From a virus, in IMG/VR virus record IMGVR_UViG_3300015263_000944, positions 171,395 through 235,394 of that record: a DNA stretch of 64,000 nucleotides, one strand, 5' to 3'. The notes beneath the pieces were generated by a model. That model ran no database searches and had not been told where the DNA came from. It worked only from the letters and a program-made list of their open reading frames with translations. This document shows positions 18,475-64,000 of this stretch, in pieces (the first letter of the stretch is position 1; the number at the start of each line of letters is the position of its first letter). A program made the position numbers and the translations under genes.

Positions 18475-18724
18475 ATTCCGTCAACTCCTCGTAGATCTCG
18501 TTCAATCGACTACGGTATGTAGCAAGATCGTGGGTCATTCTTGTGACCGCTTCATCTACTTCGAGTTGCAAAGCGTCGGATGGGCCTTCATTCCAAGATG
18601 CCTTTTCAGCCCTCGCTTTTTGCTTAAAAAGAAGGCATCGCATCTTTACTTCGGCAATCATTCCCATGATTCCTGAAGCCTCGTCAAAAAGCTCCTGAAC
18701 CTTATCTGCACTGTCCTTAAACAT
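18416..18724 (-). CDS. Hypothetical protein
   Basis: ORF track. Confidence 0.35.
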   Translation of the reverse strand: MFKDSADKVQELFDEASGIMGMIAEVKMRCLLFKQKARAEKASWNEGPSDALQLEVDEAVTRMTHDLATYRSRLNEIYEELTEYGVFSEVEETEGDIWSSLE

Positions 18725-18767
18725 AGTTGCACCCTCCTTGGCGCAGCATCATCCCCACCGTCATTCT

Positions 18768-19088: not shown

Positions 19089-19094
19089 ACCCTA

Positions 19095-19574: not shown

Positions 19575-19637
19575 CCCCGAATTCCATTGATAGCCAATAC
19601 ATACTTTAAGAAGGTTGAGAATTCAAGGAGGTAGCCC

Positions 19638-28959: not shown

Positions 28960-29391
28960 TCAGATTTCAATGGTGGACTTGAAGGTGTTTGTTTCGGGAT
29001 CAAATTTGAGAGTTGTGATCAATTCCCAGTGCGGGTCGGCCTTCGGGACGTACTCTTTTTGTGTGTAGAACATGGCTTCTATGACGAATTCGTACTCTTT
29101 TGCCGCCACTTCGTCATCTGACATGCCCGCCAGAAGATCCTCGCACATCTCCCGACAAATCCGGTAGCAATCCGGCATCCGGGCGCAATGGATCTTGTTC
29201 ATAACCATCGAAGCCTGAAACGCCTTGTCAATCTTCAGCAGATTGATGATGTCTCGCTTCTCAGGGCCATCGCCGAAAATAGCGACGGCAGAGAACTTCG
29301 CCATCACCTGCCCAGCTTTCGGGCCGTGCTTGCGGGTGTCGAAGAAATAGTCGTGAAAATTGCTGTCGTCGATGATGACTTCTTCTGTCAC
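28960..29391 (-). CDS. Hypothetical protein
   Basis: ORF track. Confidence 0.4.
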   Translation of the reverse strand: MTEEVIIDDSNFHDYFFDTRKHGPKAGQVMAKFSAVAIFGDGPEKRDIINLLKIDKAFQASMVMNKIHCARMPDCYRICREMCEDLLAGMSDDEVAAKEYEFVIEAMFYTQKEYVPKADPHWELITTLKFDPETNTFKSTIEI

Positions 29392-35139: not shown

Positions 35140-35152
35140 CTTCTAACTTGAG

Positions 35153-35532
35153 TGGACCGGACGGGATTCGAACCCGTGTCTTGCTCTGCCGTCAAAGCGG
35201 CGTCTACGATCATGTCTCTCGATTTGAGTTGTCGGCCAGCCGGTCGCTCATGAGAGCACAGCTACCATGCCAGCTTAGTCGATTTGAGTTTCGCCCATCT
35301 CTCCTACGACTCGGAGATTCAGGACTATCCTGATGGCGGTACGTCGCAGACCTATCAGGCATCGGTCATTGACGCTTCGGACGGGCCTAGCCCGTCACTG
35401 CTTACGCAGCCATGCGAAGAGGAGTCGAAGTTTCGACAATTATGGTTTTGAATGACTTTTAACGTGGCCCGTCATTCAACCACGGATCGCAGCCATCTTC
35501 TCAGAACAGCCAATCGATTCCAATTCCAGCCC
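35153..35532 (-). ncRNA. ssrA: tmRNA (ssrA), one-piece, about 380 nt
   Basis: Minus strand: 5' GGGCUGGAAUUGGAAUCGAUUGG (cf. E. coli GGGGCUGAUUCUGGAUUCGACGGG). 3' ...ACGGGUUCGAAUCCCGUCCGGUCCA with T-loop GGUUCGAAUCC. Acceptor stem GGGCUGG/CCGGUCC includes G3-U70 and discriminator A. Putative tag ORF GUC|GAA ACU UCG ACU CCU CUU CGC AUG GCU GCG UAA (ETSTPLRMAA) at 35402-35434, preceded by CAAAACCAUAAUUGUC like E. coli CAAAAAAUAGUC. Confidence 0.7.
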
Positions 35533-41023: not shown

Positions 41024-42433
41024 TTAAGCTGCATCCGCATGTGGGATCGGCTGCAAGCTGTGTCGAATCTTCATCTGCTTACCGCCACGAGCCGGGCTCA
41101 AGAAACGACTGAATCTCAAGTCGTTGATGATTGGCTCCACATCATGCAATCGCAGGCAGTAAGCCACCAGTGAACCGCAAGCCGAACCACGGCCCGGACC
41201 CACGGCTTCTGAGCCATCGCCGAACCCAACAATGCTGGGGCCGACATGGCGAGCTTCATCTGTCATCTGTTTCTGAATCAGGAAGTAGCTGGAGAAGCCC
41301 TTCTCACAGATCAGGTCGTACTCTTCCCGGATGCGGGATGAGTATTCCTTGGTGGCTGGACAACCTCGGGCCTTGAAGCCTCGCAGGGTCTCTTGCCATA
41401 GAAGGTCATCGGCATCTGGAATCTTCGGGAGCTTGATGTCCCTGTCGATCTCAACGCCCTTTGCTTTCTCACAGATGGCGATGGTGTTTGCTTTGGCTTG
41501 TTTGAAGATCTCGTAGTCGATGATGTCTTTGTACTTCAACTCCCACATGGCGTTGAGTTCGTCTTCTGACTTCAGCCACAGATTGGTGTCCTGAAGCTCA
41601 AAGAGATCATCGGCTTGACCGGAATCGATCATGGCCTGCACTTCTTGAATCGTGCGTTTGTTTTGCTGCATCAGCATGAGTCGCTGATTGTGACTGTGCT
41701 CTTTCTTGATCATCGGGAGACCGTACTTCTCGTGTGCCCGAATGAGGAAGGCGTTGTACGGCCCCTGCATCTTCCAGTCGAGCATCATCATTTCAAGGTA
41801 GAAGTTGTCTCGACCGAGCATGTCGATGTAGTATTCCAACATTTGGAATCCCGCCTCATCGCCGCCCTCAAAGAAGGCTGTGGCTATTTCGCTGATGCCA
41901 CAACCACTGGTGAAAATGATGCCTTCCTTGTGTTCTCGGAGAGCATCATGGTTGATTCGAGGGCGATAGTAGTATCCGTGAATCCACGCCCACGACGACA
42001 ACCGAACGAGGTTTTGGTAGCCGATGTTGTTATAGGCAATAGCGAGCAGATGACATGATTTGCGGAAGATCTTCTGCTCTGGTGTTTGGGCTTTCGTCTC
42101 GGCATTGGGATCGCCAAGACTCTTGTAGAACTCAGCCGTATCAGAACGAGTGTTGGATTTGGGCTGCATCCGATTGACATACAACTCGCAACCGAACAGC
42201 GGGTACAAGTTGTGCTTCTCTGCTTGTTCGATCTGCTGGGGAACTGCGCCCATAACCCCGTGATCGGTAATGCAGAGATACTTCTGGTTGATCTCCTTCA
42301 TCCGCTGGGCATACTCCCACACCATGGCAAAGCCATCGAGAAGAGAGAAATCCGAGTGTCGGTGAAGATGCTCAAAGCCCATAATCGGATGGTGCATTAC
42401 TCGTCGCCTTCCTTGGTTCCGTTTTGTTGCCAC
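41024..42433 (-). CDS. dnaE: DNA polymerase III alpha (DnaE-type) N-terminal fragment: PHP domain through start of palm
   Basis: HLHRHSDFSLLDG PHP motif; ends GPGRGSACGSLVAYCLRLHDVEPIINDLRFSRFLSPAR (E. coli [36 protein letters not shown]), then about 20 extra aa and a stop. Confidence 0.85.
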   Translation of the reverse strand: MATKRNQGRRRVMHHPIMGFEHLHRHSDFSLLDGFAMVWEYAQRMKEINQKYLCITDHGVMGAVPQQIEQAEKHNLYPLFGCELYVNRMQPKSNTRSDTAEFYKSLGDPNAETKAQTPEQKIFRKSCHLLAIAYNNIGYQNLVRLSSWAWIHGYYYRPRINHDALREHKEGIIFTSGCGISEIATAFFEGGDEAGFQMLEYYIDMLGRDNFYLEMMMLDWKMQGPYNAFLIRAHEKYGLPMIKKEHSHNQRLMLMQQNKRTIQEVQAMIDSGQADDLFELQDTNLWLKSEDELNAMWELKYKDIIDYEIFKQAKANTIAICEKAKGVEIDRDIKLPKIPDADDLLWQETLRGFKARGCPATKEYSSRIREEYDLICEKGFSSYFLIQKQMTDEARHVGPSIVGFGDGSEAVGPGRGSACGSLVAYCLRLHDVEPIINDLRFSRFLSPARGGKQMKIRHSLQPIPHADAA

Positions 42434-43159: not shown

Positions 43160-43843
43160 CTACTCGGTGCTCCTTAAAGAATCAAGGTCAGGATAATCGC
43201 TGCTTCCCAGAATCCCATCTGCCAAACCATAAAAAACGGCTTCTTCGGCTGACATGTACCAATCGACCTCATCTTTAAGTTTGCGGTCAAAAAATTTGTA
43301 TGCCGTATCGTAAGTGGCCGTCTTCTTCCTCTTAAAGAATTCTGCTGTTTCTGAGGAAATGGCTTTTTCGGCAAAGATCTGCAACATACGCTTGCAGGCC
43401 CGCTCTTGGAACTCGGCTTCGTTTTTCAGAGCGTAGGGATGCACCATTGAGCCTCCCGAGTATCCGTGGTGCATCAAGAAGTGGCAGTCTGGCATCATGA
43501 TTCTGAGGTCTGCCGCTTGGAAGATGATGCCGCTCATAGAAGATGTCTGGGAGTATCCCAACATTGTGATCTGGCTGACTGCATACTCGATAGAATTGAA
43601 AACCGCCATGCCATTGTCCCAGCACCCACCGGCAGAGTGGAGATGGACCAAAATGGGTTTGTTGGGCGACTGATCGAGCAAATGCAAATTCTTAATAAAA
43701 GTCGTGGCTTGCCGGTAATCGACTCCCGGTTCTGACTCGTCGTCCTTGACATAGTAGCTGTGAAGGTAGATTTCCCTTCGATTGAGATTCACCTGATGAT
43801 TGTGGATGTCATAAAGAACTTGATCCTTGGACTGACGGGCCAT
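43160..43843 (-). CDS. ClpP-like serine protease (S14 family)
   Basis: ILVHLHSAGGCWDNGMAVFNSIEY (INSPGG-like), catalytic Ser in SSMSG, His in FLMHHG. Confidence 0.8.
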   Translation of the reverse strand: MARQSKDQVLYDIHNHQVNLNRREIYLHSYYVKDDESEPGVDYRQATTFIKNLHLLDQSPNKPILVHLHSAGGCWDNGMAVFNSIEYAVSQITMLGYSQTSSMSGIIFQAADLRIMMPDCHFLMHHGYSGGSMVHPYALKNEAEFQERACKRMLQIFAEKAISSETAEFFKRKKTATYDTAYKFFDRKLKDEVDWYMSAEEAVFYGLADGILGSSDYPDLDSLRSTE

Positions 43844-43922: not shown

Positions 43923-44396
43923 ATGAACTTCAAGACTTGGATTGAGAACGAAGCCAGTTTAGGCTCTGGAACCCCAGAAATGGGTGCGATGCCCATGGTT
44001 AATAGGGGGAGCGAAACCCCTGCGTCCGATGCGGTTAAGCAAACTGGCCTCCAACCGCAAGTTGATGCCAAAGAGCTTAAGACAAAATCTCATAAAGAAC
44101 AAGATGCAATGCTCGCCATTGACTCAGAAATCGAGCACATGGACATGCAAATCCCTGCCGGGGACGATTCTGAGACTCCCAAACTGAACCAGTTCAAACA
44201 GCTTTGGGACGCTCTGAAAACAGCTTGGGAAGACATCAAGATGAGCGACAATACGCCCGGCGCAGAAGAGGGTGGTCTCGGCACCAACATGGGCGACCCG
44301 AAGTATCTGGCGATGATGCAGCAGCACCCGAATATGGTCCCCGCAAGCGGCCAAGGTCAGGGACCACATGGTCCGGGCACTTTCGGTCAGCAGTGA
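43923..44396 (+). CDS. Hypothetical protein with CTS-like N-terminus (MNFKTWIENE)
   Basis: Family motif; rest is low-complexity, Gly/Pro/Gln-rich. Confidence 0.5.
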   Translation: MNFKTWIENEASLGSGTPEMGAMPMVNRGSETPASDAVKQTGLQPQVDAKELKTKSHKEQDAMLAIDSEIEHMDMQIPAGDDSETPKLNQFKQLWDALKTAWEDIKMSDNTPGAEEGGLGTNMGDPKYLAMMQQHPNMVPASGQGQGPHGPGTFGQQ

Positions 44397-44722
44397 ACTT
44401 CTGGGAGAATCTGATCCAGATCCCACTTGCCGTTGACTTTCAATTTACGGAAGTCGAAAGTCACAGAAACAACATGGTCAGTGATGATCATGTGATGTTG
44501 TTCCTGTTGCCAGATAATCGAGCCGTTTCTGTCAAGAATCATGCCGCCGCAAACTCTGGCGTTTAGGCCCTCCACATCCCATGTGACGGTTGGGGCCAGA
44601 GGCTTCTCGGTGTTTGGGATCAATACCCAAAGACCTTCGGAGTCTTGATCGAACAAAGCCACCTTGCATCCCTGCAACAGCTTCTTCGCCGCTTTGAAAT
44701 CCTTCAGCCAAGGATTGATCAT
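44387..44722 (-). CDS. Hypothetical protein
   Basis: ORF track. Confidence 0.4.
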   Translation of the reverse strand: MINPWLKDFKAAKKLLQGCKVALFDQDSEGLWVLIPNTEKPLAPTVTWDVEGLNARVCGGMILDRNGSIIWQQEQHHMIITDHVVSVTFDFRKLKVNGKWDLDQILPEVHC

Positions 44723-44724: not shown

Positions 44725-45045
44725 TTAGTCTCCCATGATCAGCGATCCGAGATCATCGTCGATGCCAGCAGGCTTGACGTATCCGGTCGCTTCGAGTTTC
44801 TTTTGTGTTCGATAGGCATTCCGAAGACTCATACAACAATCTTCGGCACGATCCCATCCTGCCGTCTTCCAGACATCTTTGAGTGGGCCGACGTTCTGCC
44901 AGCCCTTCTCTGTGAGGTATTCAGCCATCACTTTCTCTTCGGCCTGACGAGCCTCTCGCTTCTTTTCCTTTTGCTTCTCTCGACGGCGGGTCTTAGAAGC
45001 AGGTTCGTTGGCTCGCTTGGCACGTTGCTTTTTGGTTAGTGTCAT
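44725..45045 (-). CDS. Basic hypothetical protein
   Basis: ORF track; K/R-rich N-terminus. Confidence 0.4.
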   Translation of the reverse strand: MTLTKKQRAKRANEPASKTRRREKQKEKKREARQAEEKVMAEYLTEKGWQNVGPLKDVWKTAGWDRAEDCCMSLRNAYRTQKKLEATGYVKPAGIDDDLGSLIMGD

Positions 45046-46643
45046 TTCAGGAAATCCTTCTCATATTGTTCTCTGGACATGATGTGGACATCACTATCCA
45101 TGTTCGGACCATCGCAGACCAAGACGTATTCTTCCCCGTCAAGGTTCTGAGATCCCAGAACAACCACATTCTGCCAGATCATGTGAATTGAAGTGAGAAC
45201 CTCTGTGGCGTACTTGTGGTACAGCGGTCGTCCATCAGCGTAGTGCTGCATGAAGAACCAGCCTTTGCCCAAGTGGTTCGGGTCGGTCAACCTGATGTCA
45301 GGCAAACCGCCATTACAGTAGCGTTGGAGCATCTGTTTCTTGACTTCCTTGAAATCACGAGACGTGATCTTCCACTCGCCCGTTGACATGCGGCGGTAGG
45401 TGTAATACTGCATCTTCTCGGCGAACTCTGGAGTGAAGAATTCGTTGATCAAGGTGTAGTCGTTGTAATACTTCCTGACTTCGAAGACCTTCTCCATGCC
45501 GAGCCCAAGTTTCTTATCCCACTTGGCCTTCTCCCGCATGTTGGTGCATTCTTCCCATTCCTTGCCGAACTTGCCCTTGTTCCATCGATCTTCGATGTCC
45601 AAGAGAAGCTCGAAGCCCAGCTTGTATGGGTTCTGACTCCACTGACCTCCCAAGACTCGCATCTTGTGTTCGGCATAGTGCCAGATACCAGCCGCTTCAT
45701 CGTCCTGTCCGAGTGAGGCAAGGCCCTCCCGACAGAGTAGGTGGTAATCGACGAAACTGGCCCAACCTTCATTGATCATCTTCGTTTGTCGCTGAGGTTG
45801 GAAGTACATGGACTCATCATAGAGCATCGAGATGATGTCTTGCTGCCACGGCTTGAGTGGAGCATTATTCTTCAAGAATCCCATGATGTCTCGATCAGCA
45901 CGACCGAACAGGCCAAGGAATTCCGAAGCTTCTTTCTTCTCAATTCTCTCGTGTTCCTTCTCGATGTACGAGTCGGGGTTGACCCATTCGTCCATGTAGT
46001 CATGAGTGGATTTCAAACGTCTGGGAAAATGGTATTTTCTTTCATCCCTGACATTCTTGTTTTCAATCTTCTTTCGCTTCCATGCCTTCTGAGGATCAAT
46101 GAGCGTTTCGATTCGCATCACATGGTCGATGAACTCTGTGACACGCTCGCCGCCCCAACGCTTCATGTACTGACGAATTCGAGTGCTGTGATTCGCCAGC
46201 TTGTTCATCATGTTTTCGTCAGTCGGCCCAAAGAAAATGTTGTTCTTGAAGAAGTCGTTGTGGCCGATGGCGTGACAGATAACGTCCACGTTGTCTACCA
46301 ACGTGTTCGAGTCCATGCAGTAGATGTAACATGGATTGGTGTTGATCACCATTTCCGAGATACGGTACTGGTTGTATTCGTAACCACGACTCATTTCCTC
46401 ATATTCCATTCCCCACTTCCAGTGTGGGTATCGGACAGGGAAACCGCCGTAGCTGGCAAGCTCAGCCATTTCGTCGTAGCGGACAAATTCAACGATGATG
46501 GGATAGTAGTCCAACCCCATATCCCTGCAAGCCTTCTCCATCTGAGGAAGCAGTTCCTCCACTTCCTTGTGGATCTTCAGACCGGGAATGTTGTTGTCAC
46601 CAACCAGAATTGGTGTCCCGCTCATCATGTTAGATTTTGACAT
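45042..46643 (-). CDS. SpoVR-family protein
   Basis: Full-length similarity pattern to SpoVR/YcgB (about 530 aa; HWKWGMEYEEMSRGYEYNQYRI, CHAIGHNDFFKNN). Confidence 0.85.
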   Translation of the reverse strand: MSKSNMMSGTPILVGDNNIPGLKIHKEVEELLPQMEKACRDMGLDYYPIIVEFVRYDEMAELASYGGFPVRYPHWKWGMEYEEMSRGYEYNQYRISEMVINTNPCYIYCMDSNTLVDNVDVICHAIGHNDFFKNNIFFGPTDENMMNKLANHSTRIRQYMKRWGGERVTEFIDHVMRIETLIDPQKAWKRKKIENKNVRDERKYHFPRRLKSTHDYMDEWVNPDSYIEKEHERIEKKEASEFLGLFGRADRDIMGFLKNNAPLKPWQQDIISMLYDESMYFQPQRQTKMINEGWASFVDYHLLCREGLASLGQDDEAAGIWHYAEHKMRVLGGQWSQNPYKLGFELLLDIEDRWNKGKFGKEWEECTNMREKAKWDKKLGLGMEKVFEVRKYYNDYTLINEFFTPEFAEKMQYYTYRRMSTGEWKITSRDFKEVKKQMLQRYCNGGLPDIRLTDPNHLGKGWFFMQHYADGRPLYHKYATEVLTSIHMIWQNVVVLGSQNLDGEEYVLVCDGPNMDSDVHIMSREQYEKDFLK

Positions 46644-47638
46644 TACTCGGTTCTCCTCCAGATATCATCCACATCATACGAGATATCTGTAATTAACTCA
46701 AGCTCTTCCCGCACTCTTCTTATAGGTTCCGACCAATCTCCTTCGGTCGATTGCCAGAAGAGTTTAACCGTGTCGTACCACATGGTTGTTTTAGAACGAT
46801 CCCACAAAGGATTATCGTCGGATTTCATCAATCCAAAAGTTGGTTTGTTCATGGTGCCTGCCAAATGAAGGACAGATGAGTCTGTCGCAATGACCGCATC
46901 CATGGCGTCGATCAAAATTGCCACGTCGTTGAAATCGTATGTTGATGGCATCAACATTGATTCGGTGTTGGGCAAGGTGTAAATGTTCCATCCCGATTCT
47001 TTAAGGACGGCCATTTGTTCCTCGGGGATTTGTTTGACGTGCAAACCACAAGCGGGCCGATTGGGCTGTATTGCCGCCTCGCCGTGAGGCAGAATCTCTG
47101 GCTGCCAAGGAACTTTGGTCTTCAGAATGACCGATCTGTCGGCGGGATAGTAGTGATCCAACTTGAGGCCACTCAACAGAGCCGGGATGCACATGATGTT
47201 GGTGTGGTAATCGCAAAGGACATGCTGATTGGTGAACTCATCCACGAACCAAACATCTTCCATCAATTTCTTTAAGGCTTCGTAGGCCGAGTAGCAATTC
47301 AGCACGATGCGACATTCCCATTCCCGCTTCAAAGCGGCGAGATATCTAAAGAAATTGATGGTGTTGCCGATGTTGAAGTCCGTGAACACTTCAATGGACG
47401 ATCCACGCAGGGACTCCCCCCGCCAGTTGCGGCCAAAGTGTTTGGAAAGGTCTGGACGTGATGCGCCCAGTGTGTCTGAAACAATCAGGCTGTAGAGTTC
47501 GCCGATGAGTTCGTGACTGGGATCTAATTTGCGGATAACTTCCAACAACTTGACGGCTTTATCGGGCAAGCCGATCCAGTAGTAGTTGTTGACAGTCGCC
47601 AGACCTTGATCAAGATACTGTTTGGAGTCCCGTGCCAT
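46643..47638 (-). CDS. GT9 (heptosyltransferase)-like paralog 3
   Basis: VIATDSSVLHLAGTMNKPTFGLMKSDDNP resembles the heptosyltransferase C-terminal motif. Confidence 0.5.
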   Translation of the reverse strand: MARDSKQYLDQGLATVNNYYWIGLPDKAVKLLEVIRKLDPSHELIGELYSLIVSDTLGASRPDLSKHFGRNWRGESLRGSSIEVFTDFNIGNTINFFRYLAALKREWECRIVLNCYSAYEALKKLMEDVWFVDEFTNQHVLCDYHTNIMCIPALLSGLKLDHYYPADRSVILKTKVPWQPEILPHGEAAIQPNRPACGLHVKQIPEEQMAVLKESGWNIYTLPNTESMLMPSTYDFNDVAILIDAMDAVIATDSSVLHLAGTMNKPTFGLMKSDDNPLWDRSKTTMWYDTVKLFWQSTEGDWSEPIRRVREELELITDISYDVDDIWRRTE

Positions 47639-48473
47639 GAATGCTGTCCCTCAACTCTCGAATTTCCTGATGCGTCGGATCGTCGCTTTCATCGAGATTG
47701 ACAAGGAACTCGTCGGACACTTCTGGCCTTCCGCCCTTGGGATAGCAGAAAATGTTCAACGAATTGCCTGCATTCAAGACATCCACCTTGTGATACTTGA
47801 AGTTGTCTGGATTGTAGACAGGAGTTTCATGCAACTCCCAGTCATAACCCACATGCTCCACGAATCTCAAAATGTCTTCCCTGTTGTCGGCAAAGTTCAC
47901 ATACAACAGAGGGGTGGACCTATCGATGGTGCGACGGCAACCATTCAGTACAGAAAGCTCCATGCCCTGCACTGACACCTTAATCAACTTGGGCTTCGCC
48001 AAGTTGACATCATCGATGGCAATTGATGCTACCGGATTATCACATTTACGTCCATCTCGGTCCTTGGCATTCAACAATGTCGCCAAGCTGATTTGTGATA
48101 GATCGACTTCACCATTGATGTCAACCGATGGGAAGTAACAGACGCCTTTGCTGGAATCTGTCACCGAACGGTTGAATGCTTGGATGTTGGTGATCTGGTT
48201 GAGAGCGATGTTGCCGCACAACATGAAGTACAGGAACGTGTGAGCCTCAATTGCCAAGACGTAACCCTCTGAGGTAACGTGCTTCGCCAAAGGAATCGTG
48301 ATCGATCCAATGTTGGCCCCAACATCAACGACCACATCACCCTTGTCAGTCAGCTTCTTCAAGAATTCTACCTTGAAAGAATTGACTTCTCCGTAGGTGT
48401 CCAGAGAACGACCTACCAATTGATCGTTCTCTAAGAACATCATGTCTCCATACTTCGTGCTGCTGACTTTCAT
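47610..48473 (-). CDS. FkbM-family methyltransferase
   Basis: VVVDVGANIGSITIPLAK motif typical of FkbM MTases. Confidence 0.65.
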   Translation of the reverse strand: MKVSSTKYGDMMFLENDQLVGRSLDTYGEVNSFKVEFLKKLTDKGDVVVDVGANIGSITIPLAKHVTSEGYVLAIEAHTFLYFMLCGNIALNQITNIQAFNRSVTDSSKGVCYFPSVDINGEVDLSQISLATLLNAKDRDGRKCDNPVASIAIDDVNLAKPKLIKVSVQGMELSVLNGCRRTIDRSTPLLYVNFADNREDILRFVEHVGYDWELHETPVYNPDNFKYHKVDVLNAGNSLNIFCYPKGGRPEVSDEFLVNLDESDDPTHQEIRELRDSIHGTGLQTVS

Positions 48474-49714
48474 GCTGCTGCCTCTCTCTTATCGTTTTCT
48501 TTGCCCAAGATCTTACGGATGGCTTCGATGATCTGCTCGTTGCGATCTTCTTCGCTGAGATTGGGGGCATAACCCCAGTTCCCGAATCCGAAGTTCCCAT
48601 CATCGTTATCCGATTCATCGGGGCCGACATTGGCCGTCTCGATATAAGAAGAGTCCAACTTTCCGCCTTTTAGGGCGTTGTCGAGGTGTTGTTTCACACT
48701 ATCTTCGTATCTCCAAGAACAAACCTGCGTCATGCCCAACAGATTAACCTTGCTGGGACCGAGTTCTTCTTTGATGATCTTGATCATCCGGCTGTTGTCG
48801 TCGCCCCAGTTGTCACCATCTGAGAAGTAGAAGATGTAGACGTTGTACTTCTCTGGCGGATATCTGTTTTCCAACTGATCCGCAATGGCCCGGAACGCCG
48901 ACGAACACATTGTTCCACCACCATAACGATAGGTGTAGAACGCCTCTTCGTTGACTTCCTGTGCTCTGGTGTCGTGGACAAAGTAGCAACGATCCACCTT
49001 GTCATAGAATTTTCTGATCCAGCAGTCGATCCACCAACTCATGTCGCTGACAATATCGCAGCGATAGTCGTCCATCGACGCCGAGCAGTCTCGGGCGAAG
49101 AAGATGACAGCATTCGAGGAAGGAATCTTGATCTGTTTGTACTGTCGATATCTGAAGTCGTTGTTGATGGGCGTCAGCAATCGAACTGGCACCTTGCAGC
49201 CCGGCACCCACTGGAGGTTCTCCAGTTCGCCGGTCATCGACAATCGCTTCAGTGCTTCCTTCATCGTTCGACGAGGATGGCGCAACGCTTGCAAACCGAC
49301 CCGAGAGATATCGTTGTACTTGATCTTGATCTCTTCGTAGGTTTCATTGGGCTTGGGCCTCATGCGAGGCAACTTCAGTTCGTCCTGCATGAACCGCAGA
49401 ACGTCATCCATATCGATAGTGATCTGGATGCCTTCACCGGGATCTTCCCCAGCTTTGTTGCCACCCTTGCCCGGTTGTGGGTCTCGCCCAACAACGTCGC
49501 CTTCTTTTCCCGGCCCACGACCGACACCTTCCCCGTTGCTTCCAAACACGAAGCGAGGAATCTCGATCTGCGGGATAGAGATCGTCATCTTGCCGCCCTT
49601 GGGCCGCTGACGAACGATGGACCCCGACTTGATCAGTCTTTTCAATTCACGTCGGGTGCGTCCAGAGATCACATCTCTGAACTTCTTATGATCTTCTTGG
49701 ATTCTCTTTGGCAT
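48470..49714 (-). CDS. YeaH/YhbH-like DUF444 (vWA-fold) protein
   Basis: Gly-rich N-region GPGKEGDVVGRDPQPGKGGNK, then vWA-like FFARDCSASMDD; length and order match DUF444. Confidence 0.8.
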   Translation of the reverse strand: MPKRIQEDHKKFRDVISGRTRRELKRLIKSGSIVRQRPKGGKMTISIPQIEIPRFVFGSNGEGVGRGPGKEGDVVGRDPQPGKGGNKAGEDPGEGIQITIDMDDVLRFMQDELKLPRMRPKPNETYEEIKIKYNDISRVGLQALRHPRRTMKEALKRLSMTGELENLQWVPGCKVPVRLLTPINNDFRYRQYKQIKIPSSNAVIFFARDCSASMDDYRCDIVSDMSWWIDCWIRKFYDKVDRCYFVHDTRAQEVNEEAFYTYRYGGGTMCSSAFRAIADQLENRYPPEKYNVYIFYFSDGDNWGDDNSRMIKIIKEELGPSKVNLLGMTQVCSWRYEDSVKQHLDNALKGGKLDSSYIETANVGPDESDNDDGNFGFGNWGYAPNLSEEDRNEQIIEAIRKILGKENDKREAAA

Positions 49715-49794
49715 GATGCTCCCCTTGTGTAAGAAAAGAGGGCGATAGCGGTAGAGTAACGATCAACCACCACTACCGCCCCCAACGTCCGTCA

Positions 49795-51879
49795 TTACTC
49801 GGAGACATCGCCTCTGGCAAAGATGCTGCTCACATAATCGAGCACATCAGTAGCCGACTGCTGGTTGTATCCGCACTGCTTAATCAATCGAGTCTTGATG
49901 GCATCGATCTTTTCTTGCAGATCGGGGTCCAACTCGGCAGCTTCTTTTGTCAAAGCCGACAACTTGATCGTGTCTTTGACATCTTCAAAGACCTTGGCTT
50001 CAAGAGCCCGCTTCAACTCAGGATTGCTGTCCCAGCGGAACTTTTTGTCCCGAGAAGCCAGCGTGCCGATAAAGGCGGCGAGCGAACGTCGGAAGTCGTC
50101 ACAACCCTGTTCGGGGATGCCGTTCTTCTCTTCAATGCTACGCATCAGTCGCTCGTCGGGGTCCATGAGGTTGCCCGTAATCGGGTTCTCCATCTTCTCG
50201 TCATTGACGTAGGCGATCACGTTGTCAACGTATTTGTTGCACAGTCGTTCAATGGCCTTCTCATCGGCGACGAGAGCACGTTGGACCTCGTTTTTCAGGA
50301 TTTCGTCGAGTTCCTTGATTGCCAATTCGACACAGAACTCATACTTCTTCCTGTCCTCCACCTTGGTAATCAGCGACGAGTGACCCAAACCTTCCTTGAT
50401 TTCGCTGAGCACATGGAACACGTTCACATAATGCTTGCGGCGAGCCAATTGGTTCGAGATCTTGTCCTGCACATATCGTGCAGACACGCCACCGATCATA
50501 CCTTCATCTGGGAACTTGTCCCGAAGCTCCTTCACGGTATCTTCGGTCCAGCCCGGAAGCTGACGGCCATCATAAAGTTTGGCCTTGTCCCGCAGATCGA
50601 GTTTCCCCTCACCGTCATCGTGTAAACGAGTCAGAATGGCGAAGAAAGCAGCGATCTCCAAAGTATGTGGCATGATGTGTTGCTTGACTTTTCCGGGACC
50701 ATACAGGTGTTCCAGAATCTTCTGCTCATCCGACCAGCGAAGCAGGTACGGCACATCCACCTTGACGGTTCGGTCACGAAGAGCTTCCATGAACTGGTTG
50801 TTCTTGAGCTTTTCGTACTCGGGGTTGTTCGTGTGAGCAATGATCAACTCATCGATCACAATCTGAGGGAACTTCTTCGGCTTGATCTGGTGCTCTTGAG
50901 ACGCTCCCAGAAGATCGTAGAGAAATGCGTTGTCGAGCTTCAACATTTCGATGAATTCACAGATGCCTCGGTTGGCAACTTGGAATTCGCCGTCGAAGTC
51001 GAAAGCACGAGGATCTGAGTCGGCCCCGAAGTGGCCGATCTTGCGATAGTTCATATCGCCGGTGAGTTCCGTGCTGTCCTGATTCTTCTCGTCCTTGGGC
51101 TGGAATGTTCCGATGCCCACACGATCCGTTTCAGAGTGACATCTGCGGACCACCACGATGTGGTTGTCGATGACCTTCTGCCAATCCCCATCATAGGTCT
51201 TGAGCAGGTGGTTCAAGAACAGCTTGCAGCGGGGATTGATCTCTCCCTCACAGATCAGCTTGTAGAGACTGTCCTTGTCGTCATCACTCGCCATGTCTGT
51301 GAACGTGGCGTTGAGATCCTTCAAGAACTCCTGCCGCATGGGAATCGGCATCAGCTTCAAAGGATTTTCGTTGAGAGCCGCATCGCAGGTGTCATTCAGG
51401 TAGATCGCATTCTGCCCTTCGAAGGGAAGATTGACCCACTTGTAAGTGTACCATGCACCAGCATTGGTGCGGCTGTAGCGTTCCAGACCTCTCTTCAAGA
51501 GGCGGCAGATGGTGGATTTCGACGAACCCACCGGACCATGCAGCAAGAGCACACGCTTCTCGGTTCCATAAGAACCGGCTGCACCGTGAATGAAATCGAC
51601 AAGACCCTGAAGAGTCTTCTCTTCCAATCCGAAGATCGGAAGGGTGTCGTCGTCGAAGAAGTGGTATCTGGTGTGTGTCTTTCGATAACGCTCGAAAGTG
51701 CTGGTGCCCTTTTCCATGATCATGTCATAGACATATTGGAAAGCGTTACGGGCCAGCGTTGGCCGCTTCATGACCAAGTTCAGGTAGTCGCCATACGACA
51801 TTTCTTCGTTCAAGGCGAGAAACTGTTCTCGATCATAAAGTTCAGCGTACTTGCTTAAGAAAGTAGTTGTGTTCTCCAT
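49795..51879 (-). CDS. prkA: PrkA-family serine protein kinase (AAA-like N-domain)
   Basis: 694 aa; N-terminal MENTTTFLSKY...; P-loop LLLHGPVGSSKST; overall PrkA/YeaG architecture. Confidence 0.9.
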   Translation of the reverse strand: MENTTTFLSKYAELYDREQFLALNEEMSYGDYLNLVMKRPTLARNAFQYVYDMIMEKGTSTFERYRKTHTRYHFFDDDTLPIFGLEEKTLQGLVDFIHGAAGSYGTEKRVLLLHGPVGSSKSTICRLLKRGLERYSRTNAGAWYTYKWVNLPFEGQNAIYLNDTCDAALNENPLKLMPIPMRQEFLKDLNATFTDMASDDDKDSLYKLICEGEINPRCKLFLNHLLKTYDGDWQKVIDNHIVVVRRCHSETDRVGIGTFQPKDEKNQDSTELTGDMNYRKIGHFGADSDPRAFDFDGEFQVANRGICEFIEMLKLDNAFLYDLLGASQEHQIKPKKFPQIVIDELIIAHTNNPEYEKLKNNQFMEALRDRTVKVDVPYLLRWSDEQKILEHLYGPGKVKQHIMPHTLEIAAFFAILTRLHDDGEGKLDLRDKAKLYDGRQLPGWTEDTVKELRDKFPDEGMIGGVSARYVQDKISNQLARRKHYVNVFHVLSEIKEGLGHSSLITKVEDRKKYEFCVELAIKELDEILKNEVQRALVADEKAIERLCNKYVDNVIAYVNDEKMENPITGNLMDPDERLMRSIEEKNGIPEQGCDDFRRSLAAFIGTLASRDKKFRWDSNPELKRALEAKVFEDVKDTIKLSALTKEAAELDPDLQEKIDAIKTRLIKQCGYNQQSATDVLDYVSSIFARGDVSE

Positions 51880-51986
51880 GAAAAACCCCTTATATCATGT
51901 GACCGATGCAAGGAGTCTATCAGATGGTTGCAGTTGTTACAAGAGGTCTTCTGCGAAAATCTTTAAGATGGAGAGAAAATCGATAT

Positions 51987-52629: not shown

Positions 52630-52908
52630 CTACTCCCACTTCTCCACACCGTCTTCCCAATAGTGCAAAATCCACTTTCCGCTAGTGGAGAAGTATTTCC
52701 GGTCGATCACGATCTGCCCATCATGAACTCTTCGATGGCAATTAGAACATGTGACTACAGTGTTGTAGTCTGTATATTCGCCGCCCTCTTCGCCCGGAAC
52801 AATGCGGTGGCAATCCAACAAGGCGTAGTCGTCAATATCGCAGAAGTAGCACTTTCCTTCGAGACGCTTCTTAGACTTCTTATCAATAAGTTTTTTCGGC
52901 CTTGCCAT
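52630..52908 (-). CDS. Small HNH endonuclease
   Basis: CYFCD...LDCHRIVP...NCHRRVH HNH Cys/His spacing. Confidence 0.55.
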   Translation of the reverse strand: MARPKKLIDKKSKKRLEGKCYFCDIDDYALLDCHRIVPGEEGGEYTDYNTVVTCSNCHRRVHDGQIVIDRKYFSTSGKWILHYWEDGVEKWE

Positions 52909-53167: not shown

Positions 53168-54535
53168 TTACTTAAGGAACCCAGTTGTGCTCAACCCATC
53201 CATCAAAGGAGCACACAAAACCTCCGGGACAATATCCGCCCCGACGATATCCGACTTCTTGTAGTCCGCTCCCTTTACCAGCACGTCTGGCCGGATCTCC
53301 TTAATAATCTCCAAAGGTGTGTCCTCGTCGAAAGATACGACGAAATCGACCATCTCCAGAGCCGCCATGACCTTCATTCGTTGGTCCAATGGCTTCAGAG
53401 GCCGCTCAGGGCCTTTCAGACGCTTCACAGAATCGTCCGAGTTCAATGCCACGACCAGCTTGTCTCCTTGGCTCTTAGCGAACCTGAGCGTCTCCAGATG
53501 GCCTTCGTGGAGGATGTCGAAGCAACCGTTGGTAAAGACCAGCTTGAAATCTCGGCTGGCGAGATCAAGCCCGTTTTCGACCAAGCCCCGGTGGGCCATC
53601 TCGGCTGGGACAATGGGCCGGTTCATCTTGTTCTGGACGTAGACGGCTCCAGCCGTCCATGCGATCTCTGCCGCCTCTGGGACCGAGAATCCGTGCCCAA
53701 TCGCCATCGCAAAAGTTGCACAGAAACAATCGCCAGCCCCAATCACACTCTCTACCTCCACGGTTCGAGTGGGGTTAAAGCAGAAGAACTCGTCGTGCCA
53801 GACTCCCGCCACCTTCTCGCCGCCGAACGTAATCACAACGCCTTCACACTCGGTTTCGTTCTGCAAATGTTTGGCCTGTTCTCGCCATGTGCTGCGACCA
53901 GTCAGATCTGCGGCCTCTTTGGCGTTTGGCTTCAAAATCGTGCAACCTCGCCATTTGCTCAATGGCCCATTCTTTGGATCAACGATGGTTGTGACATCAT
54001 GATAGAAATCGAGGATGCTGTGTTCCTCGCTGGCGAAGAAACCTTTGTTATAGTCTGACAGAATGGCGACATCTGGCTTGGACGACTTAGCGATCACGCT
54101 CTCAAGATGTTCTGTGACAAAATCAAGCAGATATTCGTCGAGGCCACAGTTGGGTGATTCGATATCGTGTCGCACGACTTGGACGCCGCCATCGAGGAAA
54201 CGTCGTTTGATTGGGAGGCTTGCTTCGATACCACTGAAAGGGGCACAGGTCCATGACAAGCCATGTTCATCAAAAACCCTTGCTGCTTTGTCATCATAGA
54301 AACAAAACAGCAAGGGATCGACATTGAAGTGTTTGAATTGGTAAGCGACATTCGCTGCGCCGCCCGGCTTCCGCACACGCTGGGAATGCGGGGACCACAT
54401 GATCGGCATGGGAAACTCGGGACTGATGCGATTGACCTTCACTTCATAGTATTCGTCGATCATTGCATCGCCGAGCACATGAATCTTAAGATTCTGGCTC
54501 CTGTTCTTTTGTAGAAAGGTCTGGATGTGACTCAT
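53168..54535 (-). CDS. hldE: Bifunctional D-beta-D-heptose 7-phosphate kinase / heptose 1-phosphate adenylyltransferase (HldE/RfaE)
   Basis: N-terminal ribokinase-like domain with GAGDCFCATFAMAI; C-terminal cytidylyltransferase domain LVFTNGCFDILHEGHLETLRFAK (HxGH). Confidence 0.85.
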   Translation of the reverse strand: MSHIQTFLQKNRSQNLKIHVLGDAMIDEYYEVKVNRISPEFPMPIMWSPHSQRVRKPGGAANVAYQFKHFNVDPLLFCFYDDKAARVFDEHGLSWTCAPFSGIEASLPIKRRFLDGGVQVVRHDIESPNCGLDEYLLDFVTEHLESVIAKSSKPDVAILSDYNKGFFASEEHSILDFYHDVTTIVDPKNGPLSKWRGCTILKPNAKEAADLTGRSTWREQAKHLQNETECEGVVITFGGEKVAGVWHDEFFCFNPTRTVEVESVIGAGDCFCATFAMAIGHGFSVPEAAEIAWTAGAVYVQNKMNRPIVPAEMAHRGLVENGLDLASRDFKLVFTNGCFDILHEGHLETLRFAKSQGDKLVVALNSDDSVKRLKGPERPLKPLDQRMKVMAALEMVDFVVSFDEDTPLEIIKEIRPDVLVKGADYKKSDIVGADIVPEVLCAPLMDGLSTTGFLK

Positions 54536-60723: not shown

Positions 60724-61419
60724 ATGAGTCGCAACTTCGAAGATGCAAGCGACCAAGGCAAAAGTATGCGAAAGTGGCAGTGCTTTGTCTGCGGTCAAAA
60801 CTTCGACGAATATCCAGAATACAAAGAACACATTCTTGAGAACCACGAGGAAGGTCGTGAATACCTCAAGTGTCCTGCTTGTGATGCGCCGGTACGAGAC
60901 ATGAAGGCACACTTCAAGTGCAAGCACCCACAACGTATCATGCCAAAAGGAATTCAACATCGAGTCTCCATCTGGCATGACTTCAAGCCCGGCAAGAACG
61001 GGAAGAAAAAGAACTCGGTGCGAAAACCAAAGTTCCGCACAGGAGAGTTTGAATCAAGAAAAAGCGGAACCCTGATCAAGTATCGATCAGGGATGGAAGA
61101 AGAGTTCTACAATCTGTTGGAACAAGACAATGACGTGATGTCATTTCATGCTGAGCCTTACAAGGTTCCCTATTATTGGCAAGGGGAGTGGCACGACTAC
61201 ATTCCAGATATCCGGGTCAACTTCATGGATGGCAGCGTAGAGATCTGGGAAGTAAAGCCTGCCAATCAGACCAGCTATGATCAGAACAAAGCCAAGTGGG
61301 CCTCAGCCCATACATGGGCACAGAATCACGGATGGGGATTCGTGGTTCAAACAGAAGTTGGTCTGGGCAAATTGAAGACCAAAGTGAGACGCCAGCGAGG
61401 CGATCTGCTTAACGAGTAG
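60724..61419 (+). CDS. C2H2 zinc-finger protein fused to TnsA-like PD-(D/E)xK endonuclease domain
   Basis: CFVCGQNFDEYPEYKEHILENH and CPACDAPVRDMKAHFKCKH (C2H2); C-terminal YIPDIRVNFMDGSVEIWEVKP (PD...ExK). Confidence 0.55.
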   Translation: MSRNFEDASDQGKSMRKWQCFVCGQNFDEYPEYKEHILENHEEGREYLKCPACDAPVRDMKAHFKCKHPQRIMPKGIQHRVSIWHDFKPGKNGKKKNSVRKPKFRTGEFESRKSGTLIKYRSGMEEEFYNLLEQDNDVMSFHAEPYKVPYYWQGEWHDYIPDIRVNFMDGSVEIWEVKPANQTSYDQNKAKWASAHTWAQNHGWGFVVQTEVGLGKLKTKVRRQRGDLLNE

Positions 61420-61948: not shown

Positions 61949-63028
61949 TTATCCTGACACGTTAATTGAATCACAGAATTGTTGAATAACGTCTTCCAAC
62001 AAAAGACCCAATACTCCGTTAATTACAGTACCCGCTGTTGCATCTGTAATATCCGTGGCTTGATTCTTGGGTTGTTCTGGATCAGTATCACTGCCACCAT
62101 CCAAGCCAAGACCAGCACTTCCGGGATTGAGGGCAATCACCTGAATGTTCGCAGCAGTCAATGCTGTAATGACCTCTCCCACTGTCGGATAATCATGGCC
62201 TTTCGCTCCAGCAGCCCAGCCCCAGATATCGCCTACCCATGCAATTGCTCGATTGGCAGTGGGGCGTCCCCCAAGAGTTGTTTCCCACTCCAAGGCGGCT
62301 TTCTGTAATGTAGCCAATTGCTGCTCCGGGCCATCTCCTCCACCACCGGCACTTAAATTACCCACAGCGAAAACCACTCCCTCAAAGTCATCGGTGAATC
62401 CTGTGTTGACTTTCCATCCGTTCGCATAATCGCCAACGTCTTCAAAGTCCCTGTATGTCACCAATCCAATACGACAGGTTGGGCTGTCCATAGCCACAAT
62501 AACTTCAGACAACAAATCTCTGAAAGCCGCAATGGTGCTTCCCATAGAACCTGTCGTATCGACAACCAAAAGAATATCGGTGTTCGAACACACGCAGCCA
62601 GACAGATAATCTGGAATTAGCGATCCTCCCACAACAACACCTCCCGAGGTGGTAATGTTGTGGGTTCTAAGACAACGACAACTATCTTGAAGAGCCTCAA
62701 GAAGCTCTTGCTCGTCATCAGGAAGAAACGAGAACTGTTCTTCTACAGTCTCAAAAATTGAGATGATCTCAGGGTGGACAGACGAGGAGAGCGTGACAAA
62801 AAGCTTGCCCTCCTTCAAGAATTCCAGATAGTAACCCGTGCTGGAGTTGTTGACAGACACACGGCCCACACGCACCACCCAATACGTCCCATTGATGACG
62901 GGGGTGACTTCATAGAGCGTAGGGCCGATTTTATTCCAGACATAGGCGCAATTTTTGGTGCTCTCCTGAATGATGTCAATCAGGATCAACTCTTCAATGC
63001 CAAAAAGTTCTTCAAGGTTCTCTGCCAT
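61949..63028 (-). CDS. von Willebrand factor A (vWA) domain protein
   Basis: MIDAS motif DILLVVDTTGSMGS; Gly-rich C-terminal region. Confidence 0.7.
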   Translation of the reverse strand: MAENLEELFGIEELILIDIIQESTKNCAYVWNKIGPTLYEVTPVINGTYWVVRVGRVSVNNSSTGYYLEFLKEGKLFVTLSSSVHPEIISIFETVEEQFSFLPDDEQELLEALQDSCRCLRTHNITTSGGVVVGGSLIPDYLSGCVCSNTDILLVVDTTGSMGSTIAAFRDLLSEVIVAMDSPTCRIGLVTYRDFEDVGDYANGWKVNTGFTDDFEGVVFAVGNLSAGGGGDGPEQQLATLQKAALEWETTLGGRPTANRAIAWVGDIWGWAAGAKGHDYPTVGEVITALTAANIQVIALNPGSAGLGLDGGSDTDPEQPKNQATDITDATAGTVINGVLGLLLEDVIQQFCDSINVSG

Positions 63029-63057: not shown

Positions 63058-64000
63058 CTAGTTTCCGTGTTTCGTCGTTAACCAGCGAACAGTTCGACTT
63101 TCGGATCGCATTGCCACAGAGTTAGTAACAGGACCGTGTGAGGTGAATCGGACACCTTCCAAAAGCTGGCCGTTGGTGATTCCAGTGGCAGCGAACATGA
63201 CCTCGCCCGCTGCCAAATCTTCAATTCCGAGCAACCGGTCGTTGGCGGGATTCCATGTTTCGGCAGTGCCATAGCTCATGTTATGATCAACCTTCTCTTC
63301 GCCTTTCTCAAACTCCTGACATTGCATAAATCCACCCATGCACTTCATTGCCGCTGCGGCAATGACGGCCTCTGGTGCGCCACCAATACTCCAATACATG
63401 TCAATCCCCGAGTCGGGCACACATGTCGCAATACAAGCAGTCACATCACAATCTGTGATGAATTTGATTCGACAACCTATTTGCCGCAAATCCGCAATGA
63501 GATCTTTGTGCCGTGGACGATCCATCACACAGACAGTGACATGTTGAGGGGACTTACCGAGAGCGGCGGCGACCATTCCAACATTTGCACTGGCCGGGTT
63601 CCTCAGATCGATCTGAGACTTGGACGCCACTTCTGGCCCTACGGCGATCTTGTCCATGTAGAACCAGTCGGTTTTGTAGAGCGAATCTTTCTTGCCCATA
63701 GCGATCACAGACATCGCTTCATAGCCGCCCTTGGCTGTGGGGGTTGTGCCTTCGATGGGATCGACGGCGATAGCGTAGTCTGGGATGTGCGTCTTTTGAC
63801 CCCATTCCTCAACCGCTGTTGGATCTTTGCCAATTGACTCCAGCCCAACCCACTCGCCTTCATACAAACCGAAGGACTCGTCCTTTTTGCCTTCGCCGAT
63901 GGCGATCTCTGCGAAAAAGTCGATGTCATTCAACCGACTCCGCATGGCATCTGTGGCTTCTTTGTCAGCAGCCTCTTTGTTGCCCCTTCCAACCCACTTG
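63058..64000 (-). CDS. glpX: Class II fructose-1,6-bisphosphatase (GlpX/FBP-SBPase type); N-terminus lies beyond the window end
   Basis: AIAVDPIEGTT, LAAGEVMFAATGITNG. The frame stays open upstream of Met 63945 to the window end: KWVGRGNKEAADKEATDAMR matches GlpX RWMGRGDKNAADGAAVDAMR. Confidence 0.8.
   Translation of the reverse strand, partial: KWVGRGNKEAADKEATDAMRSRLNDIDFFAEIAIGEGKKDESFGLYEGEWVGLESIGKDPTAVEEWGQKTHIPDYAIAVDPIEGTTPTAKGGYEAMSVIAMGKKDSLYKTDWFYMDKIAVGPEVASKSQIDLRNPASANVGMVAAALGKSPQHVTVCVMDRPRHKDLIADLRQIGCRIKFITDCDVTACIATCVPDSGIDMYWSIGGAPEAVIAAAAMKCMGGFMQCQEFEKGEEKVDHNMSYGTAETWNPANDRLLGIEDLAAGEVMFAATGITNGQLLEGVRFTSHGPVTNSVAMRSESRTVRWLTTKHGN

Follow-up and report, generated by a model that had tools for sequence, protein, structure and literature searches.

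What would a phage do with a bacterial starvation module? We analysed a 64,000-nucleotide (nt) stretch of viral DNA, referred to here as the window (positions 171,395 to 235,394 of IMG/VR virus record IMGVR_UViG_3300015263_000944). It encodes homologues of PrkA/YeaG, YeaH/YhbH (DUF444) and SpoVR/YcgB, a triad known in bacteria as yeaG-yeaH-ycgB or prkA-yhbH-spoVR, which is among the most widespread bacterial stress modules without a known mechanism. Two genes for glycan-type enzymes, a family-9 glycosyltransferase (GT9) and an FkbM-family methyltransferase, lie between DUF444 and SpoVR. Our analysis favours, at a probability of roughly 55%, a phage-adapted and inherited triad that would impose or tune a starvation-quiescence programme in the host, with the GT9 and FkbM genes as co-transcribed later additions. 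An earlier reading made from the letters alone (the sequence-only reading) had recognised the triad and considered a viral copy unusual.

The triad genes and their order

The gene junctions were measured from the coordinates of a program-made list of open reading frames (ORFs), in which all five triad and insert genes lie on the minus strand and are followed by two small ORFs:

49795-51879, minus strand: prkA/yeaG homologue, 694 amino acids (aa), AAA+ ATPase plus C-terminal kinase-like PrkA domain, of the 'long' (~690 aa) type
48470-49714, minus strand: yeaH/yhbH homologue (DUF444), 414 aa, C-terminal von Willebrand factor A (vWA) domain with a complete metal-ion-dependent adhesion site (MIDAS)
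47610-48473, minus strand: FkbM-family S-adenosylmethionine-dependent methyltransferase, 287 aa, a lineage-specific insertion
46643-47638, minus strand: GT9-fold (ADP-heptose-type) glycosyltransferase, 331 aa, a subclade-specific insertion
45042-46643, minus strand: spoVR/ycgB homologue, 533 aa, zincin-like fold predicted
44725-45045, minus strand: orf106, overlapping spoVR by 4 nt, no family found
44387-44722, minus strand: orf111, 2 nt after orf106 and followed by a convergent gene

The list reproduced all five previously proposed genes exactly at their coordinates, and the tight start/stop overlaps claimed for them were borne out, at 4 nt for DUF444/FkbM, 29 nt for FkbM/GT9 and 1 nt for GT9/SpoVR. 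PrkA and DUF444 are separated by an 80-nt spacer. The canonical bacterial order PrkA, DUF444, SpoVR on one strand is thus kept, as had been proposed, and is broken by 1.86 kb that holds the two glycan-type genes, whose insertion is borne out by the ORF list and the profile matches alike.

Profile searches supported the three family identities far beyond chance. PrkA matched PF08298 (E = 8.9e-74, profile positions 2-354 of 358) and PF06798 (E = 6.5e-71, positions 2-255 of 255) in Pfam, DUF444 matched PF04285 (E = 3.3e-63) and the NCBIfam model NF003711 (E = 3.6e-90), and SpoVR matched PF04293 (E = 6.3e-103, positions 5-405 of 407), with the SpoVR_C domain slightly below its cut-off (24.3 against 27.6 bits). 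PrkA is 28% identical to Escherichia coli YeaG and scored 197 bits against the NCBIfam equivalog PRK15455, under the cut-off of 576, so that it is not the enterobacterial YeaG equivalog. Its closest solved relative over the full length is PDB entry 9xip, 'Serine protein kinase' (E = 1e-199); entries 9xip, 9xiq and 9xir represent a separate 692-aa protein, distinct from the PrkA of the window, and no partner proteins appear under their name.

The residues expected of each family are kept. In PrkA the Walker A motif GPVGSSKS (K121), E308/E311, H349-T-N351 and D369-R370 do not vary across an alignment of 22 sequences that includes 20 phage loci and E. coli YeaG; the Walker A lysine of Bacillus subtilis PrkA, K108, is essential, and ATPase activity is needed for its function. 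The DUF444 MIDAS (D209-x-S211-x-S213, T268, D299) is invariant in all phage copies, in E. coli YeaH and in the copies of Thermus and Ralstonia phages described below. SpoVR has 28 residues that are invariant in the phage, E. coli, Thermus-phage and Ralstonia-phage copies, among them H74, E97, N101, H124, H128, E292 and N338-P-Y340. Judging from this retention of invariant motifs, the triad proteins are clearly functional. Compared with the bacterial modules (yeaG-yeaH/ycgB in E. coli, prkA-yhbH/spoVR in Bacillus), the window therefore has the same three Pfam families, in the order and orientation of most cellular operons, and shares their invariant motifs (Walker A, MIDAS and those of SpoVR). 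It differs from them in being borne by a phage, in having a sigma-70-like promoter in place of RpoS, NtrC or sigma-E control, and in an operon that is broken by two glycan genes and trailed by two small ORFs.

A core block of one huge-phage clade

A megablast search of the 9-kb region against 50,697 deposited phage records returned no match, so relatives are visible only at the protein level. There, the best match of PrkA (62% identity), DUF444 (52%) and SpoVR (59%) was in each case LR756511 (SR-VP_PHAGE_COMPLETE_CIR-CU-CL_42_23), a curated, circular and complete phage genome of 595,163 bp from vernal-pool mud (Al-Shayeb et al., 2020, supplement). The synteny with LR756511 extends to both sides of the triad and covers ThyA, dihydrofolate reductase (DHFR), HldE, PrkA, DUF444, SpoVR, an AAA protein and DnaE. 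Unlike in the window, DUF444 and SpoVR abut in LR756511, with neither GT9 nor FkbM between them; the record is unannotated and its triad is not discussed in the text of Al-Shayeb et al. (2020).

Two scans of IMG/VR yielded ~33 further contigs of this clade, with PrkA proteins 54-80% identical to that of the window and lengths of up to 572, 527, 511 and 459 kb. The block recurs in them, usually followed by ClpP and DnaE, and a protein database added more than 100 clusters at ≥66% identity on contigs of up to 691 kb. Every clade locus that reaches far enough past prkA has DUF444 and SpoVR in the same order, and the divergence levels of the three proteins are correlated across the loci. The synteny with LR756511 and with the many IMG/VR contigs shows that the window belongs to a phage replicon, as previously assumed; the triad, which had been presented as an oddity, is a core syntenic block in this lineage. 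Within the 64 kb itself no virion gene was detected with PHROGs or Pfam, and the same searches gave nothing for the large ORFs at 24734-26809, 21912-23042, 23182-24369, 12081-13199 and 15389-16477, so the viral assignment rests on the relatives. The neighbours of the triad are genes for replication, nucleotide metabolism and proteostasis.

Phylogeny against the bacterial homologues agreed with an old association. In a neighbour-joining tree, the PrkA proteins of the huge phages form one clade of their own, sister to the cellular long-type (~690 aa) proteins. Among cellular proteins, drawn from 185,579 species with one genome apiece, the best PrkA reaches no more than 50-55% identity, and the top matches are scattered over Chloroflexota, Myxococcota, Calditrichota, Planctomycetota, Bdellovibrionota and other phyla. 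Since no cellular PrkA exceeds 55% identity, we reject a recent transfer from the host. PrkA, DUF444 and SpoVR are contiguous in ~45 of the 80 cellular loci with a long-type PrkA, and this shared order argues that the phage ancestor took up a complete operon. Taken from tree and synteny, the triad appears to be a single old capture that has since been inherited vertically as a core block of one huge-phage clade.

Two sets of records stand beside this clade. A group of IMG/VR contigs of 8-222 kb (L126-L169) carries contiguous triads that are 47-52% identical to the window's and lie outside the HldE/ClpP/DnaE synteny; they could be a phage lineage, prophage-adjacent host DNA or misclassified cellular sequence. 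In LR756502 (642 kb), PrkA and DUF444 are adjacent (273879-277088) and the best SpoVR match lies ~245 kb away (520010-521434), so the triad may be dispersed in that genome.

Repeated capture by unrelated phages

The notion that a viral copy would be unusual proved overstated, since copies are on record in Thermus and Ralstonia phages, in PHROGs and in published tables. The Thermus phages phiYS40 and TMA have DUF444, SpoVR and PrkA on one strand (genes 56-59), as in the window, annotated as 'conserved bacterial protein' (DUF444), 'SpoVR' and 'serine kinase', in phiYS40 since 2006. They differ from the window in the order of the genes (DUF444, SpoVR, a 616-aa ORF, PrkA), in identities of only 24-31% and in belonging to a 152-kb myovirus of a thermophile. 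The Ralstonia jumbo phage RsoM2USA, a cultured 344-kb phage, has a contiguous PrkA-DUF444-SpoVR triad (ORF30-29-28), whose YeaG-type proteins of proteobacterial origin are 25-26% identical to those of the window; the paper describing it lists SpoVR under replication and PrkA under signalling, and the module went unrecognised. PHROGs holds families for all three proteins, each labelled 'unknown function', the supplementary tables of Al-Shayeb et al. (2020) record Pfam matches to PrkA and SpoVR for several huge phages, and Bastille-like phages of Bacillus encode a lone YhbH-like vWA 'sporulation protein'. In total, PrkA was present in 17 of the 50,697 deposited phage records. Neither the text of the huge-phage paper nor a comparative jumbo-phage review mentions the triad module, and our full-text literature searches returned no paper in which it is described as a module of phages.

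In the PrkA tree, phiYS40 occupies a separate branch, which argues for an independent capture, and RsoM2USA groups with E. coli YeaG. With the huge-phage clade this makes three separate positions, from which we infer that phages captured the whole operon at least three times.

Purifying selection and inteins

We computed the ratio of nonsynonymous to synonymous substitution rates (dN/dS) on the least saturated pair of clade loci, L018 and L019. The values were 0.017 for PrkA, 0.038 for DUF444 and 0.010 for SpoVR, compared with 0.086 for the neighbouring hldE gene. The triad is thus under very strong purifying selection (0.01-0.04), tighter than that on hldE.

Several clade members carry inteins at the most conserved sites of the triad. 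Two PrkA proteins, P0082 (1084 aa) and P0100 (1085 aa), contain an intein of ~390 aa inside the sensor-1 motif of the AAA+ domain (IISH|S...CHN|TNN). In the SpoVR protein of L006 (IMGVR_UViG_3300020195_001430, 16841-19768), a 441-aa LAGLIDADG intein (Cys1 ... HN|T) splits the invariant motif SEMVIN|TNP (ExVxN|TxP) after N101 and before T102. P0228 and P0234, two further SpoVR proteins, are 870-882 aa long, and Pfam finds an intein domain in P0228. On the cellular side, the SpoVR protein of Oscillochloris sp. ZM17-4 (L038, 9261-11459) is part of a 732-aa ORF with ~2.3 kb of additional sequence ahead of the conserved region, perhaps an intein or an N-terminal extension.

A predicted zincin-like fold for SpoVR

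The predicted fold of SpoVR is zincin-like (gluzincin-like). Its candidate metal-site motifs are H124-A-I-G-H128 and N291-E292-G-[WF]-A, the second of which resembles the third metal ligand of M1 enzymes. We considered and rejected SpoVR as an active zincin metallopeptidase, given that the glutamate of HExxH is absent.

A probable single transcription unit with a sigma-70-like promoter

Comparison with the relatives revealed two conserved signals around prkA:

51914-51942, minus strand: sigma-70-like promoter footprint upstream of prkA, with -35 TTGTAA (51942-51937), a 17-nt spacer and -10 TAGACT (51919-51914)
49731-49783, minus strand: 17-bp GC-rich stem-loop (49783-49738) followed by UUUUCUU (T-run 49737-49731), directly 3' of the prkA stop codon

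The pattern TTGTnn-17 nt-TAnAcT is kept in the window and in loci L001, L004, L005, L006, L007 and L009, in which the remainder of the spacer is unalignable, and an AGGGG ribosome-binding site lies immediately 5' of the prkA ATG at 51879. No sign of RpoS-, NtrC- or sigma-E-type stress control was seen, the sigma-70-like -35/-10 pair being the sole conserved upstream element, although no specific search was made for sigma-54 or other motifs. The hairpin after prkA has a folding energy of -31.5 kcal/mol (z = -5.3 against shuffled sequences), and a hairpin of unrelated sequence occupies the same position in L004, L009, L013 and L016, two of which have clear T-runs. Only ~15 nt separate the T-run of the window from the ribosome-binding site of DUF444, which leaves no room for a separate DUF444 promoter. 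We read the hairpin as a putative intra-operon attenuator, partial terminator or RNA-stabilising structure.

Downstream of it, the genes are packed tightly enough for translational coupling. The two small ORFs that trail spoVR were called identically on an independent Joint Genome Institute (JGI) contig; neither matched a Pfam, PADLOC or PHROG family, and the conservation of orf106, seen in L004, is weak. They are probably the 3' end of the transcription unit, and from the signals and gene packing we infer a single sigma-70-type unit that runs from prkA to orf111.

The inserted GT9 and FkbM genes

The FkbM protein is well supported by its profiles (TIGR01444, E = 3e-20, 73.1 bits against a cut-off of 37.7; PF05050, E = 1.4e-8, 35.5 bits against 22.7). 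The GT9 assignment is weak by sequence (PF01075, E = 2.2e-6, 27.6 bits against a cut-off of 22, over the 45 residues 231-275 only) and is supported by the predicted fold. In Foldseek searches with an AlphaFold2 model of high confidence (predicted local distance difference test 89.3), all matches with E ≤ 1e-3 were TibC, WaaC, WaaF or a Veillonella family-9 glycosyltransferase, with TibC at 9e-6, WaaC/WaaF at 6e-5 to 1e-4 and TM-scores of 0.4-0.5. The window enzyme would share with TibC, a protein O-heptosyltransferase, and with WaaC/WaaF, which act on the lipopolysaccharide core, the GT-B fold and the GT9-type C-terminal nucleotide-sugar domain. It differs from them in an identity of only 11-14%, in the TM-scores just given and in an extra N-terminal segment of three helices, similar to tetratricopeptide repeats (TPR). 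Two further genes lie upstream of this operon:

53168-54535, minus strand: HldE-like bifunctional sugar kinase/adenylyltransferase (ADP-heptose synthesis; PF00294 and PF01467), 1.3 kb upstream of prkA
52630-52908, minus strand: small HNH endonuclease gene between hldE and prkA (Pfam, E = 1.8e-5)

The hldE gene, which most clade loci keep upstream of prkA, probably supplies the sugar that the GT9-like enzyme uses as donor.

The distribution of the two genes is much narrower than that of the triad. Among ~35 clade contigs, the DUF444/SpoVR junction is empty in at least 22 (LR756511 included), holds GT9 only in 8 and holds FkbM plus GT9 in 3, namely the window, L006 and L009, whose FkbM proteins are 45-47% identical. 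In the PrkA tree, all 11 GT9 carriers fall together in a single subclade, and GT9 identities follow the pattern of the flanking genes (L018-L019 93%, L006-L009 65%), which argues for a single GT9 insertion followed by vertical inheritance. The GT9 protein is under purifying selection (dN/dS = 0.075) and diverges several-fold faster than the triad: GT9 proteins are 33-54% identical where the triad proteins are 67-88%, and in the closest pair, L018/L019, 93% compared with 98-99%. A search of 5.8 billion proteins yielded no more than 22 homologues, so that the family appears essentially confined to this phage subclade. BLASTP and a search with a GT9-family hidden Markov model found no GT9 or FkbM paralogue elsewhere in the window.

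Other junctions of the triad have also received genes. The PrkA/DUF444 junction holds a Dam-like (DPPY) methyltransferase and two paralogous 227-aa ORFs in L005 (12137-14392), and a double-HNH endonuclease in L006 (12166-13038). In L115 (IMGVR_UViG_3300037467_003067, 776-3447, minus strand), hldE overlaps by 4 nt a gene for a 417-aa TPR plus GT9-like protein, 30% identical to the GT9 of the window, which lies 4 kb from the triad on the opposite strand; this suggests that the phage HldE/heptosyltransferase pair moved around within the clade. Two cellular Chloroflexales loci, L038 and L040, looked at first as if they shared the window's insertion between DUF444 and SpoVR; in L038, the 732-aa SpoVR-containing ORF fills the gap, which makes a gene insertion unlikely there. 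We conclude that GT9 and FkbM are probably later passenger insertions, a heptose-glycan toolkit that landed in a permissive junction and is co-transcribed with the triad. The sequence-only reading was therefore right about their insertion into the operon, whereas the membership of the module that it implied gives way to the evidence for passengers.

A proposed host-directed role and its alternatives

The three genes are mutually cofit across six bacteria. In E. coli, where they are under RpoS/NtrC control, YeaG and YeaH jointly act as a 'metabolic brake', quiescing metabolism and keeping cells viable when they are starved of nitrogen; in Bacillus, where control is by sigma-E, the prkA-yhbH/spoVR genes are required for sporulation. 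By analogy, the phage triad would be an ATP-driven machine for protein remodelling and regulation, composed of an AAA+ motor (PrkA), a vWA-MIDAS adaptor (DUF444) and a zincin-like partner (SpoVR). Host sigma-70 RNA polymerase would transcribe the unit, and a leaky hairpin would keep PrkA, presumably a hexamer, in excess over its partners. Free of NtrC, RpoS and sigma-E control, the phage copy could impose or tune the starvation state in a slow-growing, nutrient-limited host, which would be kept alive while its resources are directed into a prolonged infection. The GT9-like and FkbM enzymes would stand outside the machine and function with the ADP-heptose pathway of the phage (hldE). We favour such a host-directed role because of the location of the triad among replication, nucleotide and proteostasis genes, its sigma-70-like promoter and its repeated capture by unrelated phages.

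Several points weigh against this reading. The proposed physiology carries findings in E. coli and Bacillus over to an uncultured phage known from its sequence, and a phage might be expected to stimulate rather than brake the metabolism of its host. The activity of PrkA is itself disputed, as it has been described as a kinase in E. coli, as a Lon-like protease in B. subtilis and as neither in B. anthracis; this conflict bears out the earlier remark that the function of the triad is poorly settled in bacteria. A generic scan for promoter and terminator consensus sequences gave no excess over shuffled sequences, with the prkA promoter at a sub-threshold 8 of 12 matches, and the promoter and the hairpin come from comparisons with ~7 and ~5 loci, respectively. 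In SpoVR, Ala125, invariant in the phage clade, replaces the general-base glutamate of HExxH, and E. coli YcgB reads HACYGH, with one residue more between the two histidines, so the zincin-like reading may not imply peptidase activity. Finally, GT9 is held at the same junction across its subclade, under purifying selection and with overlapping start and stop codons, which leaves a small probability of a functional link to the triad.

The alternative that survives best, although we consider it unlikely, is that the triad is a chaperone-protease for the morphogenesis or assembly of virion or replication-factory components. The combination of an AAA+ ATPase, a vWA-MIDAS partner and a metallopeptidase-fold domain resembles the MoxR AAA+/vWA(-metallopeptidase) pairs known from group 2.2 jumbo phages and from ATV, an archaeal virus in which they serve in tail assembly. 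PrkA differs from these systems in not belonging to the MoxR family and in its kinase-like C-terminal domain, and the peptidase-like part, SpoVR, stands as a protein of its own whose HExxH is degenerate. Genes for ClpP and DnaJ lie close by, very tight conservation and inteins are typical of essential phage machinery, and loss of the genes in Bacillus disturbs assembly of the spore envelope (cortex and coat). However, the block lies among nucleotide-metabolism and replication genes in a window with no detected virion genes, and its promoter is of the host sigma-70-like type that is usually early or middle. Most phages, and most jumbo phages among them, do without the module, and unrelated phages with different virion types captured it independently, which fits a host-directed role better.

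We find it improbable that the two glycan genes are integrated parts of the triad, that is, a TPR-bearing O-heptosyltransferase and a sugar-capping methyltransferase that modify the triad or its substrate. The overlaps within the operon and the retention and selection of GT9 noted above would fit, the best structural match is a protein heptosyltransferase, and the L115 homologue has the N-terminal TPR repeats typical of protein-modifying glycosyltransferases. Yet the lead of TibC over WaaC/WaaF is marginal at best, and the L115 homologue sits with hldE and away from the triad. The triad occurs in at least 22 clade members with neither gene, most GT9-carrying loci are devoid of FkbM, no cellular triad locus examined has either insertion, and the triad genes and junctions also host unrelated mobile genes (Dam methylase, HNH endonuclease, inteins). 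Slightly less credible again is a wider version, in which the triad would be a self-contained and possibly proteolytic AAA+/vWA/zincin-like machine, core and near-essential, that in the subclade of the window is glycan-coupled through a TPR-type O-heptosyltransferase fed by HldE and through FkbM, which would mark the machine or its substrates. If that were true, the actual hydrolase of the bacterial module may be SpoVR and not PrkA, and the conflicting kinase and protease reports would be reconciled.

A conflict system, in which the triad would act on the basis of an NTPase-vWA core as an effector of anti-defence, of superinfection exclusion or of abortive type, is very improbable. AAA+/vWA pairs are recurrent in biological conflict, the jumbo-phage literature mentions Ter and vWA systems, and huge phages are rich in conflict genes. 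PADLOC, however, found no match for PrkA, DUF444, SpoVR, GT9 or the flanking small ORFs and only a generic methyltransferase-domain match for FkbM. The slow clock-like evolution and stable synteny of the triad are the opposite of the fast turnover of conflict genes, and in bacteria its homologues belong to the chromosomal housekeeping genes for stress. An origin from host DNA, from a mis-binned piece of a bacterial genome or from a chimeric assembly, which had been named as what would undo the finding, is hardly credible: although the genes are bacterial in type, the 64 kb hold no identified virion gene and the L126-L169 contigs could be cellular, such an origin is contradicted by an independent JGI contig (120,310 bp) with an identical gene string and identical protein lengths, a 238,888-bp contig with exactly the same proteins and a flat G+C level of 0.48-0.52 throughout the region, which together make a chimera very unlikely, by two-sided synteny with a curated circular 595-kb phage and more than 30 viral contigs, by the ceiling of 55% on cellular PrkA identity in 185k species genomes, and by the huge-phage cargo of the window (tmRNA, IF-3, peptide deformylase, DnaE, ThyA/DHFR).

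Significance of the phage triad

Viral copies of the triad genes were already on record, with no discussion of them as a module. New are the findings that the triad is monophyletic and part of the core in one huge-phage clade and that phages captured it at least three times, as well as the inteins in conserved motifs, the conserved promoter and putative attenuator signals and the predicted zincin-like fold of SpoVR. The window itself adds one further member and a lineage-specific insertion, and no new kind of system. Taken together, the repeated captures, the core retention under tight selection and the inteins argue that the triad is a portable unit that works autonomously on a cellular target of wide conservation, and that control over the starvation state of the host is valuable to phages with long cycles. 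The cultured carriers phiYS40/TMA and RsoM2USA, together with a SpoVR fold prediction that names residues, offer experimental handles.

Other genes of the window

The remaining annotated genes of the window include the following:

35150-35532, minus strand: transfer-messenger RNA (tmRNA), ARAGORN tag peptide VETSTPLRMAA*, Rfam RF00023 at 88.5 bits over the full-length model
41024-42433 and 29388-32270, minus strand: split DnaE (DNA polymerase III alpha), PHP/N-terminal and finger/HhH parts
13192-13728, minus strand: translation initiation factor IF-3
20672-21187, minus strand: peptide deformylase (translation/proteostasis)
5957-7114, minus strand: DnaJ (proteostasis)
43160-43843, minus strand: ClpP (proteostasis)
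61949-63028 and 63058-63945, minus strand: GlpX-type fructose-1,6-bisphosphatase and an adjacent vWA-domain protein
60724-61419, plus strand: TnsA-like endonuclease

Further cargo comprises PhoH, two dCMP deaminases, ThyA, DHFR and several glycosyltransferases and methyltransferases, and the translation and proteostasis genes are consistent with the huge-phage repertoire in the literature. The two parts of DnaE lie ~8.7 kb apart, with ~10 unrelated genes between them, the tmRNA and an AAA gene included, whereas DnaE of LR756511 is a single ORF of 1179 aa; in L004, the N-terminal part of DnaE is likewise followed by other genes.

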